This document shows positions 47,027 to 53,101 of a stretch of 64,000 bases of DNA, piece by piece (position 1 is the first letter of the stretch; each line of letters opens with the position of its first letter). The notes below the pieces were generated by a model that was given only the letters and a program-made list of their open reading frames with translations, searched no databases and had not been told where the DNA came from. This stretch comes from Gemmatimonadota bacterium (lineage in GTDB: Bacteria; Gemmatimonadota; Gemmatimonadetes; Gemmatimonadales; JACORV01), in contig JBGOSS010000009.1 of assembly GCA_041476105.1 (NCBI GenBank), forward strand, positions 2,798 to 66,797, in the 5' to 3' direction. The translations under genes were made by a program, and so were the position numbers.

Positions 47027-48127
47027 ATGGCCACGTCCGCCAGCGACAAGCAGCTTATCGAGGTCCGCCGCCGGCTGCGCAACGCCGCGCTGGCGGCGCT
47101 GGGCACGCTGGTCGTGGGCACCGGCGGCTACATGATCCTGGGCCGCGGCCGGCACGGGTTCGTGGACGCGCTCTACATGACCGTCATCTCCCTGACGACG
47201 GTCGGTTACGGCGAGATCATCCCCCTCGAAGGCCACCCGTGGGGCCGGGTCTTCACCATGGTCCTGCTGGTCTTCGGCCTGGGCCTGCTGACCTATTTTG
47301 TCTCGACGATGACGGTGTTCGTCTTCGAGGGACACCTGGGCCAGGTGTTCTGGAGGCAGCGTATGCACAAGGCAATCGGAGAGCTGAAGGAGCACTACAT
47401 CGTGTGCGGCGACCGGATGGTCGCGGCGCATGTGATCGACGAGCTGCGGCGCGTCCAGCGCGCGGTGGTGTCGGTCGTGCCGGCCGGCTGCGAGCTGCAC
47501 CCCCTGGCGACCGAGGGGGAGCTGCTCCAGGTGGAGGGCGATCCGGCCGACGAGGACATCCTGCGCGAGGCCGGCATCATGCGCGCCGCCGGGCTGGTCT
47601 CGGCGATGGAGTCCGACCGCGAGAACGTGCTGGTCACCCTCACCGCCCGGCAGACCAACCCGATCATGCGGATCGTCTCGATGCTCATCGAGGTGAAGAA
47701 CGACGCGAAGCTGCGGCGCGCCGGCGCCGATGCGGTGGTCAACACCTCGATGATCGGGGGCCTGCGGGTAGCCTCCGAGATGATCCGCCCTTCAGTCGTG
47801 ACCTTCCTCGATTCGATGCTCCGGGACCGGGACAAGAACCTTCGCATCGACGAGATCACGATCGAGCCCGGCTCCCCCGCGATCGGCCAGCCGATCGGCT
47901 CCCTGCGGGTCAACGCGATGTCGGGGTTGCTCCTCCTGGCGTACGTCGCGGCCAACGGCAAGGACCGGCACTTCAAGCCCGACGAGGCCATGATCGTGGA
48001 GCAGCACGGCACGCTGCTGGTGATGGGTGGTCCCGATGCGGTGACGCAGCTGCGCACCCGCTACGGTGGGCAGCACGCCGGCAGCCTCAAGACGACGACG
48101 GAGTCCCCGATCCCAAGGCGCGCCTGA
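47027..48127 (+). CDS. 2-TM potassium channel with RCK (TrkA-N/TrkA-C) domains
   Basis: Selectivity filter TTVGYG; GRVFT; GDPADEDIL..AGI..A; L.RAGAD.VV. Confidence 0.93.
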   Translation: MATSASDKQLIEVRRRLRNAALAALGTLVVGTGGYMILGRGRHGFVDALYMTVISLTTVGYGEIIPLEGHPWGRVFTMVLLVFGLGLLTYFVSTMTVFVFEGHLGQVFWRQRMHKAIGELKEHYIVCGDRMVAAHVIDELRRVQRAVVSVVPAGCELHPLATEGELLQVEGDPADEDILREAGIMRAAGLVSAMESDRENVLVTLTARQTNPIMRIVSMLIEVKNDAKLRRAGADAVVNTSMIGGLRVASEMIRPSVVTFLDSMLRDRDKNLRIDEITIEPGSPAIGQPIGSLRVNAMSGLLLLAYVAANGKDRHFKPDEAMIVEQHGTLLVMGGPDAVTQLRTRYGGQHAGSLKTTTESPIPRRA

Positions 48128-48959
48128 GCGGGTCGGCGAGCGCGCAGAGCAGGGCGCCGAGAATCGCGCCCGCGATCGCGTCCACGGCGTAGTGGAACTG
48201 CCCGTAGACGGTTCCCACGGCGAGTCCCACGGCGACCGGCGCCAGCAGCAGCGCCAGCCAGCGCGCGTCGCGCCAGAGCGCGAACACCGCGCACCAGGTC
48301 GCGGCCACGTGGGACGAGGGAAACGCGGTCCCGATCGCCGAGCCACCCTCGATCAGCCAGTGCTCGAAGCGCGCCGTCGCCACCTCGGCGATCGGCCCGG
48401 TGGCGTTGCCATAGAAGTAGCGCGGGCCGGCGACCGGGAAGAGCGCGAAGATCACGTAGCAGACGTAGAACCCGAGCGTCAGCAGGAAGCCGGAGCGCTC
48501 GAAGGCGTCGCGCGAGCGGCGGAAGTAGAGAAAGAGCGGGCTGAGCAGCAGGATCCAGTAATACGATCCGTAGCAGAAGTGGAGGACGAAGGAGAGCGCC
48601 AGGTTGGGCATCCGCTGGTGCCAGGTGACGCTCACCTGCTCCCCGAACACCGCCAGCTCCCAGCGCTGCACCGTCGCGTCGTACAGCCGGCCCACGTCGA
48701 GGCTGATCAGACCGAGCTGGGTGTAGAATGAGGCGGTGAGCAGCACGGTGTAGGCGCCGCCGACGAAGGTGACGAGCCGGGTCATCGGCGCCCGCGCGAG
48801 CAGCGCAACCAGCAGCACGGCGAGCGCGTTGCCCGCCAGCAGCCACGGCCAGCTCGCCACCTCGCGGGCATGCCACAGCAGGACCGCGGTATTGATGACC
48901 AGGTAGCCGAGAAAGACCTTGTCGGTCGCGGTCACGCCGCGCACCGGGGCTTCGCTCAT
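48087..48959 (-). CDS. PAP2_3 / Aur1 (IPC synthase)-like membrane phosphotransferase or phosphatase
   Basis: Polytopic; FPVAGPRY, AFPSSHVA, HYAVD; lacks the KxxxxxxRP motif of canonical PAP2. Confidence 0.75.
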   Translation of the reverse strand: MSEAPVRGVTATDKVFLGYLVINTAVLLWHAREVASWPWLLAGNALAVLLVALLARAPMTRLVTFVGGAYTVLLTASFYTQLGLISLDVGRLYDATVQRWELAVFGEQVSVTWHQRMPNLALSFVLHFCYGSYYWILLLSPLFLYFRRSRDAFERSGFLLTLGFYVCYVIFALFPVAGPRYFYGNATGPIAEVATARFEHWLIEGGSAIGTAFPSSHVAATWCAVFALWRDARWLALLLAPVAVGLAVGTVYGQFHYAVDAIAGAILGALLCALADPLRRALGSGTPSSS

Positions 48960-48984: not shown

Positions 48985-49959
48985 TCAGATCCACCCCTGC
49001 TCCCGATACCACGCCCCGGTCAACCCCATGCCTTCCGCCATGCCGCGCCGCGCCGTCCAGCCGAGCATTCGCTCGGCCTTGGTCGCGTCCAGCAGCCACG
49101 ATGGGGCGAGGAACTCGGCCATCCGGTCGGCGTTGAGGGGGGTATACCAGCCCATCGCCGCCGCGGCGCGGCCGACGACGCCGGCGATCGCGGATGCCAG
49201 CAGGCCGGGCACCGGCACCACGATCGGTGAGGAGCCGATGGCCAGGCCCGCCGCGCGGCTGACCTCGCGGCTCAGCACCACCTCGCGGTGCGCGGCGTGG
49301 AAGACCTGCCGCTCGGCGGCCGGATGCGTACCGGCCTGCACGATGGCCGCAGCCAGGTCCGCCACGTAGACCAGAGACAACTCCTGGGTCCCCGCGCCGA
49401 AGACCGGCGCGATGCCCCGGCGCACGATGCGAAAGAGCTGAAGAAAGGCGCGATCGCGAGGGCCATACACCGCGGGCGGGCGGACGACGCTCCAGGGCAG
49501 ACCCGACGCGCGCACCGCCAGCTCGCCGGCCAGCTTGCTCCGGCCGTAGGCCGTCACCGGCCGGCACTCGGCGTCTTCGGTGAACGGTTTGCCGGCCGCC
49601 GAGGGACCCAGCGCGGCCTGCGACGAGACGTAAACGAAGCGGGTGAGCCGGGGGGCGGCCTCGCGCACCGCGTCGAGCAGGCGGCGCGTGCCCCCCTCAT
49701 TGACGGCGAAGAACTCCGCCTCGCCGCGCGCGAAGGTCGCCCCGGCGACGTGATAGACAGTCTGCACACCCGCGAGCGCGGCGGCGAGGGTGCGGGGGCT
49801 CTCGAGCGAGCCGGAGATCGGCGTCGCTCCGAGCCGGGCCAGTGCGGCGTGCTGATCGGGACGGCGGGCGAGCGCGACGACGGTGTCTCCGCGCGCCACG
49901 AGGGCCTCGGCGAGATGGCTCCCGACGAAGCCGGTGGCGCCGGTGACGAGCGACTTCAC
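48985..49959 (-). CDS. NAD-dependent epimerase/dehydratase; candidate ceramide reductase (CerR-like)
   Basis: VTGATGFVG, YVSS, YGRSK, RPPAVYGP; GTGA overlap with the GNAT gene. Confidence 0.75.
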   Translation of the reverse strand: MKSLVTGATGFVGSHLAEALVARGDTVVALARRPDQHAALARLGATPISGSLESPRTLAAALAGVQTVYHVAGATFARGEAEFFAVNEGGTRRLLDAVREAAPRLTRFVYVSSQAALGPSAAGKPFTEDAECRPVTAYGRSKLAGELAVRASGLPWSVVRPPAVYGPRDRAFLQLFRIVRRGIAPVFGAGTQELSLVYVADLAAAIVQAGTHPAAERQVFHAAHREVVLSREVSRAAGLAIGSSPIVVPVPGLLASAIAGVVGRAAAAMGWYTPLNADRMAEFLAPSWLLDATKAERMLGWTARRGMAEGMGLTGAWYREQGWI

Positions 49960-51086
49960 AGCGCCTTGTCGTACATCCGAAGTGTCTTGTAGGCCCGGAA
50001 CCCCATCTTCTCCATGCCGTTGCGGATGGCGGCGTTGGTTTCGAGGAGCCAGCTCGCCTCGCCCCAGTTGAGGCCGCGCTTCTTGCTTTCCCGCCAGGTC
50101 CACTCGTACATCAGCGCGTCGGCGCCGGTCCGGCGGTACTCCGGGATCACGCCCAGGATCAGCGTCCGGATGCGGCCCAGCTTCCGGCGGTACCAGAGGA
50201 TCTTCAGGAGCCCGAAGGGAAAAAGGCGCCCCGACGGATTGTGCTTGAGCGCCACGTTGAAGTCGGGAATGCTGACCCCCATCCCGATGAGTTTGCCCTC
50301 GATCTCGGCGAAGACGACCAGCTCGGGTATGACGACCGGCTTGAGCCCCTTCGCGAGCACGTCGACCTCGGCGTCGGTCATGGGAATGAAACCCCAGTTC
50401 TTCTCCCACGCCGCATTGTAGACCTGCTTGACCTTGGCGACTTCTTCCTCGAAGCGCGACATGTCGAGCTTGCGCAGCGTGATCTTGTAGCGCTCGGCCA
50501 GCTTCCGTGCGCCCTCGATCAGCCGCTGGGGAGGAGGCGCCTCGTCCCCACCGCCCTCGTAGCAGAGGAGGTCCATCACCTTCGCGAATCCGGCGCGTTC
50601 GACCAGGCCGACGTAGTAGCGCGGATTGTGCGGGTTCATGATCACCGGCGGGGTGTCGAAACCGTCCACCAGCAGCCCGCACTCGTCGTTGGTGCTGAAC
50701 GACGCCGGCCCGCGCATCACCGTCAGCCCCTCGGCCCGCAACCACTGCGCGGTGACGCGGAAGAGCTCATCGGCGACCGCCTGGTCGTCGACACACTCGA
50801 AGAAGCCGAAGAAGCCGACCTGCTTCTCGTCGGGGTGGTACTGACCGTGCGCGTCGTTGCGGATCGCGGCGATGCGGCCCGCCACGGCGCCGCCCCGCTC
50901 GGCGAGGAAGTACTCGGCCTTGCCGTGCTCGAAGAAGGGGTTCGTCCCGCGGTCGAGGAGCTTGCGGACGTCCATGCGCAACGGGGCGACCCACATGGGA
51001 TCGCCCCGGTGCAGCCGGTACGGAAAGTCGATGAACCGGCGCAGGTCGGCCGGTGTGCTCACCGGCCGGACGGCGACCGAGGTCAG
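49956..51086 (-). CDS. Tandem GNAT acyltransferase; candidate bacterial ceramide synthase (bCerS-like)
   Basis: FIDFPYRLH..DP.WV.PL, NPFFEH, GRIAA, GFFGFFEC, GLLVDGF, PHNP.YY, WEKNWGF.P, EASWLLETN; start CTG 51086 or GTG 51062. Confidence 0.75.
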   Translation of the reverse strand: MTSVAVRPVSTPADLRRFIDFPYRLHRGDPMWVAPLRMDVRKLLDRGTNPFFEHGKAEYFLAERGGAVAGRIAAIRNDAHGQYHPDEKQVGFFGFFECVDDQAVADELFRVTAQWLRAEGLTVMRGPASFSTNDECGLLVDGFDTPPVIMNPHNPRYYVGLVERAGFAKVMDLLCYEGGGDEAPPPQRLIEGARKLAERYKITLRKLDMSRFEEEVAKVKQVYNAAWEKNWGFIPMTDAEVDVLAKGLKPVVIPELVVFAEIEGKLIGMGVSIPDFNVALKHNPSGRLFPFGLLKILWYRRKLGRIRTLILGVIPEYRRTGADALMYEWTWRESKKRGLNWGEASWLLETNAAIRNGMEKMGFRAYKTLRMYDKAL

Positions 51087-52294
51087 GCGAGAACCTCGAG
51101 GTCGCGGCCGATCTTCTGGAATGCGCTCAGCGCGAAATCGATCTGGTCGGCGGTATGCGTCGCCATCAGGCTGGTCCGGAGCCGGCACTGCGACGGCGGC
51201 ACGGCCGGCGGTACCACCGGGTTGGTGAAGACGCCGGCGTCGAACAGCTTCCGCCAGAAGACGAAGGTCTTTTCGAGCGGGCCGATGAGGACCGGCACGA
51301 TCGGCGTTTCGGTCGGGCCGATGTCGTAGCCCATCGAGCGCAGGCCCGCCTGGAGCCGCCGGGTGTTTTCCCACAGGGCGGCGCGGCGCTCCGGCTCGCT
51401 GCGCAGGATTTCGAGCGCCGCAAGCACGCCCGCGGTGTTCGAAGCCGGCAGGGCAGCCGTGAAGATGAGCGGCCGCGAGTGGTGCTTGAGGTAGTGGATG
51501 ACGTACTCGTCGCCGGCCACGTAGCCGCCGATCGATGCCAGCGACTTGGAGAAGGTCCCGACGGTCAGGTCGACTTCCGCGGTCATGCCGAAGTGGTCGG
51601 CGGTGCCGGCGCCGGTCGGACCCAGGACGCCGATCGAATGGGCGTCGTCCACCGCCAGCGCGGCGCCGTAGCGATGCGCGATCGGGACCAGCTTCGCCAG
51701 GTCGGCGATGTCGCCTTCCATGGAGAAGACGCCATCCACGATGATCATCGCGCCCTTGGTGCGCTCCGCCGCGAGCTTGCACTCCAGGCCCGCCAGGTCG
51801 CCGTGGTTGAACCGGACGACCTCGCCATACGACAGCTTGGCGCCGTCCACGATCGAGGCATGATCGAGCTTGTCGAGGAACACCGTCTCGCCGCGGCCGA
51901 CCAGCCCCGAGACGACGCCCAGGTTGGCCTGGTATCCGGTCGAGAAGACGAGGCACGACTCCTTGCCGAGGAACTCGGCGAGTGCGGTCTCGAGCTGCTC
52001 ATGGAGGTCGAGCGTTCCGTTCAGGAACCTGCTGCCGGTGCATCCCGAGCCGTACTTGTGCAGCGCCGCTTCCGCCGCCGCCAGCACCTTCGGGTGGTGG
52101 GTGAGGCCGAGGTAGTTGTTCGACCCCATCATCACCTTGGACTTCCCGTCGATCTTGACGACGGTGTCCTCGGATTCCTGGATAGGCGTGAAATAGGGGT
52201 ACAGCCCCATGGCCTGAACTTCTTTGGCACGCGTGAAGTTTCTGCACTTTTCGAACAGCGCGACGTGACGTTCAGTCTGGACTGTGGTGGCCAA
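51083..52294 (-). CDS. spt: Serine palmitoyltransferase (alpha-oxoamine synthase family)
   Basis: GLYPYF, GSNNYLGL, GCTGSRFLNGT, DHASI.DG, DDAH, PLP lysine in GTFSKSLASIGG, SRPLIFTAA; TTG start after GGGGGAAG; context favours Spt over BioF/Kbl. Confidence 0.8.
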   Translation of the reverse strand: MATTVQTERHVALFEKCRNFTRAKEVQAMGLYPYFTPIQESEDTVVKIDGKSKVMMGSNNYLGLTHHPKVLAAAEAALHKYGSGCTGSRFLNGTLDLHEQLETALAEFLGKESCLVFSTGYQANLGVVSGLVGRGETVFLDKLDHASIVDGAKLSYGEVVRFNHGDLAGLECKLAAERTKGAMIIVDGVFSMEGDIADLAKLVPIAHRYGAALAVDDAHSIGVLGPTGAGTADHFGMTAEVDLTVGTFSKSLASIGGYVAGDEYVIHYLKHHSRPLIFTAALPASNTAGVLAALEILRSEPERRAALWENTRRLQAGLRSMGYDIGPTETPIVPVLIGPLEKTFVFWRKLFDAGVFTNPVVPPAVPPSQCRLRTSLMATHTADQIDFALSAFQKIGRDLEVLA

Positions 52295-52333
52295 CGGACT
52301 TCCCCCTGACAAAGGCATTCGGTAAAGTTACCT

Positions 52334-53101
52334 ATGATACGGTCGCTTATCAAGTTACGTCGCTTGCCGCCAATGCTGGCGCCGCTGCTGGCGATTGCGC
52401 CAAATACCGGTGCGGCTCAGGCAATCCCGGCGGTGCCAGCCCCGGTCCGCTATTCCATCAGAATGGGCGACGCGGTGGTGTTCGGGGCCGCCGGTCTGGT
52501 CGGGGCGGTGCCGACGCTGGCCGGCACGAGACTGCCCTACGCACGCTGCGCTCCCTGCGATTCAACCCGCCTCTGGCCGCTCGATCGGCGCACGATCGGG
52601 CTGCCCAGGGAGGGCGTCTCGATGGGCAGCACGCTCGTCATGGGCGCGACCTTCGCGGGGGCCGGTGCGCTGATCGCGCTGTCGAGGCGCGGTGAGCCAG
52701 CGGCCGGCACGGCCGCATGGGAGGATCTCGCGATCCTGGCCGAGGCAGTCGAGATCGACGAGCTGGCCACGCAATGGGCGAAAGTGCTCTTCCACAGGGC
52801 GCGGCCGGTGCTGTATACGTCCGCGGCGTCCCAGAACCCCACGGTGGACGCGGGCCGCTCGTTTCCGTCGGGGCACGCCAGCTTCGCCTTCGCATCGGCG
52901 GCGGCCGCCGCATCCATCCTTCAGCGCCGTCACGAGCTGGGCCGGCACAAGGTCGAGGTGGTCCTGCTCTTCGCGGGCGCGACCGCGACGTCGGTGCTGC
53001 GTGTCGCCGCGCACAAGCACTTTCCCACCGACGTGGTGGCCGGCGCGGTGTTGGGAACGGCCGTCGGCTGGGTGCTGCCTCAGCTGCATCACGTCCACTG
53101 A
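52334..53101 (+). CDS. Canonical PAP2 lipid phosphatase (start uncertain)
   Basis: C1 KVLFHRARP, C2 FPSGH, C3 RVAAHKHFPTD. Confidence 0.85.
   Translation: MIRSLIKLRRLPPMLAPLLAIAPNTGAAQAIPAVPAPVRYSIRMGDAVVFGAAGLVGAVPTLAGTRLPYARCAPCDSTRLWPLDRRTIGLPREGVSMGSTLVMGATFAGAGALIALSRRGEPAAGTAAWEDLAILAEAVEIDELATQWAKVLFHRARPVLYTSAASQNPTVDAGRSFPSGHASFAFASAAAAASILQRRHELGRHKVEVVLLFAGATATSVLRVAAHKHFPTDVVAGAVLGTAVGWVLPQLHHVH

Follow-up and report, generated by a model that had tools for sequence, protein, structure and literature searches.

Fungal inositol phosphoceramide (IPC) synthase consists of a catalytic subunit, Aur1, and a regulatory subunit, Kei1. Three Aur1 residues, H255, H294 and D298, are reported to be essential in yeast (PMC13133130). 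In bacteria, BT_1522 of Bacteroides thetaiotaomicron was found through its homology to AUR1, and IPC is lost when it is deleted (PMC9246714, PMC8791184). In Caulobacter crescentus, ceramide phosphoglycerate is described as the product of a CDP-alcohol transferase, nucleotidyltransferases and a ceramide kinase, with genes in the CC_1152-1161 region (PMC11087976, PMC11324152), and the CerR step that completes the ceramide is periplasmic (PMC11087976). Here we analysed a stretch of 64,000 nucleotides (the window) of contig JBGOSS010000009.1 from a Gemmatimonadota bacterium of the order Gemmatimonadales, in which a ceramide-type operon ends with the gene of a 290-residue membrane protein. Our analysis points to an Aur1-family enzyme which likely uses a glycerophospholipid as the donor of a phospho-head group for the predicted ceramide of the operon. 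A sequence-only reading of this DNA had presented such a eukaryote-like route as new in bacteria; that claim does not stand, since BT_1522 has already been shown genetically to fulfil the role, and this publication limits the surprise. That bacteria can have an Aur1-type enzyme is thus known already, and the 290-residue protein belongs to a separate, uncharacterised Aur1-fold sister subfamily found in ceramide operons of several phyla.

The motifs from which that reading started, FPxAGPxY, AFPSSH and HYxxD, are all present (Table 1) and place two His residues and an Asp of the protein opposite the three essential residues of Aur1, with a His-to-His spacing of 39 in both proteins. This triad (H217, H256 and D260) is intact in 119/119 close homologues; among 149 representatives, it is intact in 141, all of those with residues in these columns. 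The motifs are therefore not chance matches. As had also been noted, the K-x6-RP phosphatase motif is absent from the protein: F171 and G178 stand at its C1 positions, and T250 at that of the C3 Arg. The C1 Lys/Arg and the C3 Arg are missing across the family, and a search for K-x6-RP anywhere in the sequence found it in only 1 of the 119 close homologues and 1 of the 149 representatives. At the C3 position, the B. subtilis and E. coli PgpB proteins have Arg, whereas Aur1 has Thr (T288), like the 290-residue protein.

The homology to Aur1 extends over the full length of the protein. It matches the Pfam family PAP2_3 (PF14378) with 72.8 bits (cut-off 27) and PAP2 with 32.6 bits; PAP2_C (PF14360), the sphingomyelin synthase family, remains under its cut-off (18.2 bits against 27), and AFPSSH takes the place of the sphingomyelin synthase D3 motif CGDxxxSGHT. 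Searches of the PDB with the single sequence or a narrow profile returned nothing, and Aur1 was reached by a broad profile only: built from 42 diverse family members, it matched yeast Aur1 (E 2e-14) over positions 10-280 of 294, and the phosphatases PgpB, YodM and LpxE over just the last 70-80 positions, the C2-C3 end (best E 5e-7). A search of the ESM Atlas returned PAP2_3 clusters only, and the wider family comprises 4447 clusters at E values up to 0.001. An AF2 model of the protein (pLDDT 91, pTM 0.89) retrieved two Aur1 entries first in Foldseek (E 5e-4, TM scores 0.64 and 0.61). VIA-align gave Z 16.8 for 9vj4 (rmsd 4.2, 257/290 residues aligned) and Z 16.2 for 9ivc (257-263 residues for the two entries), the next match after Aur1 being LpxE, with Z 12.8 over 162 residues. 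The model thus predicts the full-length eight-helix Aur1 fold.

The gene is also closely linked to ceramide genes. It is the fourth of four co-oriented genes, after spt, a bcerS-like and a cerR-like gene, and follows the last of these after a gap of 25 bp, in agreement with its earlier description as the last gene of a ceramide operon. For Gemmatimonadales, we took the best 80 of 514 genome loci and counted the 56 with at least 5 kb of upstream sequence, setting aside 24 shorter ones; spt and a cerR-type short-chain dehydrogenase/reductase (SDR) gene occur in the same order in all 56, and bcerS in 54. The co-occurrence with spt clusters proposed as a check in the sequence-only reading is therefore borne out. 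The family profile matched 91 of 161 Gemmatimonadota genomes (tallies that include G153, flagged as unpublished), of which four weak matches were set aside. A bcerS homologue is present in all 87 remaining genomes, those with a strong PAP2_3 homologue, and such a strong homologue in 0 of the 56 genomes without bcerS. These genomes are kin rather than independent and one gene order dominates, so that the Gemmatimonadota linkage represents one or a few events.

The association extends to other phyla, which lends it independent support. The family profile matched 48 of 121 Acidobacteriota genomes, taken from the phylum to which a Vicinamibacteria bin belongs; these tallies include G188 (flagged as unpublished). 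Eleven of the 40 loci examined lie directly behind ceramide genes, with bcerS in 11/11 of these genomes, and four of the 11 make up complete four-gene operons, with 30-34% identity. One further candidate, L166, was rejected because its 'spt' is 53% identical to the genome's Kbl-like paralogue as against 36%, which brought the count from 12 to 11; it stays among the four outgroup 'SB' loci of one comparison. Two loci, L061 (from a Vicinamibacteria bin, on a 4.9-kb contig) and L151 (counted within the 11), fall among or close to Gemmatimonadales sequences and could reflect mis-binning or transfer. When distant members served as seeds for a scan of metagenomes, at least 80 loci were obtained, 39 of them of at least 8 kb; among the matches listed, spt or bcerS accompanies 28 of these 39, and 18 of 27 clusters at 70% identity are ceramide-linked. 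At least two gene orders occur, one of them with bcerS convergent downstream. Named relatives come from Eisenbacteria, Poribacteria, TA06, Fidelibacterota, Chlorobi and Bacteroidota bins. Deep branches differed between two FastTree runs (midpoint root, support down to 0.36), and we therefore claim no origin or direction of transfer.

Where the PAP2_3 gene is missing, other tailoring enzymes can adjoin the ceramide genes, which suggests that the fourth gene behaves as an exchangeable tailoring step: GT4 and LPG_synthase_TM genes in G093 and G048, a GT4 gene in G046, and an LTA-synthase-family gene in fourth place of the ceramide operon of a Rubrobacter plasmid. The spt-bcerS-cerR-type trios of cultured Actinomycetota (L280:5704-11296, a Rubrobacter radiotolerans plasmid, and L281:5766-10292, a Streptomyces plasmid) are followed by an LTA-synthase-family or a condensation-domain gene. 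Several operons have spt, cerR and the PAP2_3 gene without bcerS (L016, L017, L022, L023 and L024; L159, L165 and L173), and the genomes checked carry a distant bcerS homologue (29-32%) elsewhere or a closer unlinked one. In G065, the operon copy of the PAP2_3 gene is missing, and the distant copy, a paralogue with a radical SAM gene in its vicinity, has one in-frame TGA.

Several observations weigh against this assignment. The fungal motifs IPCS1 (D-h-h-n-W-x2-Y-x3-H-x3-P) and IPCS2 (Y-x3-G-x3-GL-x-R-x-D), as given in PMC11402645, are not conserved: IPCS1 keeps only its Tyr (Y130), its D, W and H being replaced by S123, H127 and Y134, and the IPCS2 loop is shorter. The BT_1522-type model NF052609 gives the protein 20.2 bits against a cut-off of 480. 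FIT2 is described as lacking C1 and yet being a hydrolase (PMC7659722). Moreover, neither spt nor bcerS nor an SDR gene adjoins 15 of 20 extra Gemmatimonadota copies, 29 of the 40 Acidobacteriota loci have no ceramide gene nearby, and several Acidobacteriota genomes with such unlinked homologues have no bcerS match. Finally, the names bCerS and CerR are putative assignments made from genomic context and not from a curated model.

The FIT2 case means that the loss of C1 is no proof of transfer, and the protein could instead use water as acceptor, as a lipid phosphatase or phospholipase C-type enzyme acting on ceramide phosphate, sphinganine phosphate or a phosphosphingolipid. The His-His-Asp (HHD) triad is the same in phosphatases (PMC13133130), FIT2 hydrolyses acyl-CoA (PMC7659722), SMSr and SMS2 are reported to hydrolyse glycerophospholipids, and the weak matches to NCBIfam phosphatase models are as strong as that to the BT_1522-type model. 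However, none of the three basic residues in the phosphatase signature is retained across the family, full-length homology and fold favour Aur1 over a hydrolase, and a canonical PAP2 phosphatase already adjoins the operon in 31 of the 56 Gemmatimonadales loci. A catabolic enzyme would also be unexpected in so tightly linked a final position of a biosynthetic operon, and we consider hydrolysis an unlikely function.

The many homologues away from ceramide genes indicate that the wider family is not all ceramide-linked and has other acceptors. The window protein itself could be a phosphotransferase acting on glycosylated ceramide or another membrane lipid rather than on plain ceramide, a reading favoured by homologues that lie in SDR-pap-SDR trios or beside genes for phosphatidylinositol phosphate (PIP) synthase (PIPS) and myo-inositol phosphate synthase (MIPS). 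There is presumably a precedent in yeast Ipt1, which we take to act on glycosylated ceramide and to belong to the same Pfam family. We nevertheless find this improbable: the window operon has no glycosyltransferase, GT4 genes were seen where the PAP2_3 gene is absent and not beside it, and the operon copy is tied to spt and cerR almost without exception in Gemmatimonadales. Five Gemmatimonadota loci (L118, L120, L124, L125 and L132) show a second conserved arrangement, in which the PAP2_3 paralogue lies between two SDR genes with no spt or bcerS nearby; in L118 a CAAX-protease-like gene follows. The paralogues of L107 and L119 have a radical SAM gene in their vicinity, in L119 as the immediate neighbour.

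The context-based gene identities raise the further question of whether the operon makes another amino-lipid, such as a 1-deoxy or sulfono analogue, and so offers the enzyme a different substrate. The window Spt scores under its curated cut-off (528 against 640), the bCerS-like protein has no match to Pfam or NCBIfam models, and the best model for the SDR is HpnA, below cut-off. This is very improbable, however: the structures closest to the window Spt are bona fide serine palmitoyltransferases (SPT), with 438 bits compared with at most 307 bits for others and well ahead of Kbl/BioF and cysteate acyltransferase, the Kbl-like paralogue of the genome is a gene separate from the operon spt, and the identical trio order recurs in the Rubrobacter and Streptomyces records. 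The bCerS-like protein is 35% identical to a Sphingomonas N-acetyltransferase whose gene lies near spt-like and lptF/G genes.

If the protein is indeed an Aur1-type phosphotransferase, its mechanism would by analogy with Aur1 begin with activation of H256 by D260; H256 would attack the donor phosphodiester with release of diacylglycerol, and H217 would activate the 1-OH of ceramide, which would accept the phospho-head group. Loops 2-3, 4-5 and 6-7 and the C-terminus are short and Arg-rich, which by the positive-inside rule suggests that the triad faces the periplasm, where CerR is reported to finish ceramide in Caulobacter.

Which head group is transferred is less clear. We consider phosphatidylinositol (PI) the single most likely donor in the window genome, with about an even chance as against phosphatidylethanolamine (PE) or phosphatidylglycerol (PG). 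A PIPS-like gene (NF045883, 149.5 bits, cut-off 170) directly precedes MIPS on another contig of this genome, C43 (L089:8140-10242, G000). G039, a 99% complete genome, has spt-bcerS-cerR and lacks the PAP2_3 gene, MIPS and PIPS together, which we counted in favour of PI; G093 likewise lacks all three and has GT4 instead. In four metagenome loci of one 70% cluster (L232, L234, L250 and L261), a PIPS-like gene comes after the PAP2_3 homologue, with MIPS next in three of them (L234 ends first), an arrangement resembling the Bacteroides inositol-lipid cluster. Other results speak against PI. The inositol-linked branch falls outside the clade of the 290-residue protein in two trees (support 0.998 and 1.0), and four genomes (G106, G140, G149 and G150) have lost PAP2_3 from the operon and kept MIPS. 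Three Acidobacteriota genomes with the four-gene operon (G183, G240 and G216) gave no MIPS or PIPS in searches with two Pfam models and a protein query; all three have phosphatidylserine (PS) decarboxylase. MIPS occurs in 8 of the 11 ceramide-linked Acidobacteriota genomes compared with 77/121 overall, no clear enrichment. Two candidate arguments were dropped: G026 as a case of PAP2_3 without MIPS, its PIPS-like gene being cut at the contig end where MIPS would follow, and the Gly/Leu in the TM7-TM8 loop as an inositol tracker, Aur1 itself having Leu there. MIPS of the C43 type is present in 139 of the 161 Gemmatimonadota genomes searched, suggesting that inositol lipids are common in this phylum with or without ceramide genes.

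PE and PG should be available as well, since the window genome has pssA-like/psd and pgsA-like genes, and the donor may differ by lineage. For the Bacteroides ethanolamine-phosphoceramide synthase, PMC8791184 (2022) names no candidate. Bacteroidales/Bacteroidota bin members score 130-154 bits on the profile of the 290-residue protein's family and have no match to the BT_1522 model, which indicates a second Aur1-like family in Bacteroidota. Two loci (L251 and L279) each carry two divergent PAP2_3 genes: one belongs to the 290-residue protein's family, and the other is nearer the BT_1522 model (46 bits). These Bacteroidota members, together with the inositol-gene-free Acidobacteriota operons and their PS decarboxylase, lead us to propose, tentatively and as something we still doubt, that in at least some lineages the Aur1-fold family is the bacterial non-inositol ceramide head-group transferase, supplying phosphoethanolamine or phosphoglycerol from PE or PG. 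The earlier proposal of an Aur1-type ceramide phosphotransferase finds support in the sequence, the predicted fold, the loss of the C1 and C3 residues that bind phosphomonoesters and the conserved linkage to spt, bcerS and cerR; an inositol head group is not established for this protein.

Table 1. Positions of the candidate transferase gene, its motifs and its neighbours in the window.
Feature	Position	Strand	Remarks
Aur1-like PAP2_3 membrane protein, candidate ceramide phospho-head-group transferase	48087..48959	-	290 aa; 8 predicted transmembrane helices; ATG start, TGA stop
Y134	48558..48560	-	At the Aur1 H157 position (aureobasidin A pocket)
FPVAGPRY	48417..48440	-	Residues 174-181; degenerate C1 position; aligns with Aur1 FPAAPPWY
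AFPSSH	48309..48326	-	Residues 212-217; C2; H217 = Aur1 H255
HYAVD	48180..48194	-	Residues 256-260; C3; H256/D260 = Aur1 H294/D298
Extended SDR/epimerase-family protein, probable ceramide reductase CerR	48985..49959	-	GTG start overlaps bcerS stop; assigned from context
bCerS-like acyltransferase	49956..51086	-	Homologues annotated GNAT/N-acetyltransferase; probable CTG start (51084-51086) overlaps spt stop
Serine palmitoyltransferase (spt)	51083..52318	-	Best PDB matches are SPT, E 4e-130; NF047600 527.8 bits, cut-off 640
Divergent canonical PAP2 phosphatase	52334..53101	+	Intact C1 (KVLFHRARP), C2 (PSGH) and C3 with Arg
TrkA-domain K+ channel	47027..48127	+	Convergent neighbour
Membrane protein, 647 aa	45046..46989	-	No Pfam/NCBIfam match

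The candidate gene has a coding-type GC content at its three codon positions (0.66/0.49/0.93), and its 3' end overlaps the convergent channel gene by 41 bp. CTG was chosen as the probable bcerS-like start as no ATG, GTG or TTG lies where the homologues begin. The gene divergent from spt is a canonical PAP2, as the sequence-only reading had it; it hardly aligns with the family of the 290-residue protein, over 24 columns (E 0.055). Across the Gemmatimonadales loci it is a frequent rather than a constant neighbour of spt. The starts of the two genes as called are 15 bp apart, and one or both true starts therefore probably lie further in. No PgpA was found in the window's genome (84% complete), and we speculate that the divergent PAP2 could carry out a PIP or phosphatidylglycerophosphate phosphatase step, as BT_1525 does in Bacteroides. 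The 647-residue protein has a close homologue in the same position in G065 (L106). A further sphingolipid-type cluster, an unusual one, occurs in G073 (L111:11-10619), where a 1512-residue fusion of AMP-ligase, acyl-CoA dehydrogenase, acyl carrier protein and Spt-like domains lies near a PAP2_3 gene, a UDP-GlcNAc 2-epimerase gene, bcerS and an MBOAT gene. A scan for promoters and terminators gave a chance-level result, and the 290-residue protein had no plasmid match. Near-identical DNA, with no indels listed, was found in contigs of 4/4 sediment runs, making an assembly artefact unlikely, and 77 of the 80 nearest loci carry Gemmatimonad- names.

Our literature search turned up nothing on the sphingolipids of Gemmatimonadota or on this protein's family; most subscription papers and all supplements lay outside it, and gene tables there may already list such loci. 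If our assignment is correct, it names the head-group enzyme for the sphingolipids of bacteria that are abundant in soil and sediment and for the most part uncultured (Gemmatimonadales and some Acidobacteriota), leads us to expect a bacterial source for part of the phosphoceramide signal in the environment, and provides a compact four-gene module that could be rebuilt in E. coli. Transfer from PE or PG, if true, would mean that one family with switchable donors makes phosphosphingolipids across many soil and sediment phyla. The testable part of the problem is which head group the family transfers. Sensitivity to aureobasidin A is a poor test, since Y134 matches Aur1 H157, for which H157Y is published as a change conferring strong resistance in yeast (PMC13133130); this position is Tyr in 115 of the 119 close homologues, and the assay would probably be uninformative for the 290-residue protein.

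Compared with the known systems, the protein stands closest to yeast Aur1 (PDB 9vj4 and 9ivc), with which it shares full-length profile homology, the predicted fold, the triad and its spacing, the FPxxxP and AFPSxH motifs and the Thr that replaces the C3 Arg; it differs in overall identity (16-18%) and in its drug pocket, where Tyr and Trp stand at the positions of H157 and F158. It has no known Kei1 partner, although none was searched for. The PAP2 phosphatases PgpB, LpxE and LPP1 have in common with it the LPT core fold (Z 8-13) as well as the His and Asp residues of C2 and C3, whereas the 290-residue protein lacks the C1 KxxxxxxRP and C3 Arg and aligns with them over its C-terminal part alone. 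Sphingomyelin synthases and SMSr (PDB 8ijq) share the HHD triad and the predicted phosphodiester transfer chemistry, align with it at Z 11.0 and differ from its Aur1-type topology. BT_1522 is likewise a bacterial Aur1 homologue with a proposed transfer of a phospho-head group to dihydroceramide, and the two proteins show weak mutual similarity (E 3e-4). The score of about 20 bits on NF052609 means that our protein is not its orthologue, and this model had no match in the whole window genome, the control being detected in B. thetaiotaomicron. BT_1522 adjoins PIPS, PIP phosphatase and MIPS genes, whereas the 290-residue protein's gene adjoins spt-bcerS-cerR on contig C9, away from the inositol genes on C43, and no MIPS or strong PIPS match was found in the 80 related loci. 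With Caulobacter, the operon appears to share the three core gene types Spt, bCerS and CerR; the head group is added there by other enzyme classes, and PAP2 and AUR1 go unmentioned in the main text of PMC11324152. A periplasm-facing triad in the 290-residue protein would fit the periplasmic CerR step described for Caulobacter.

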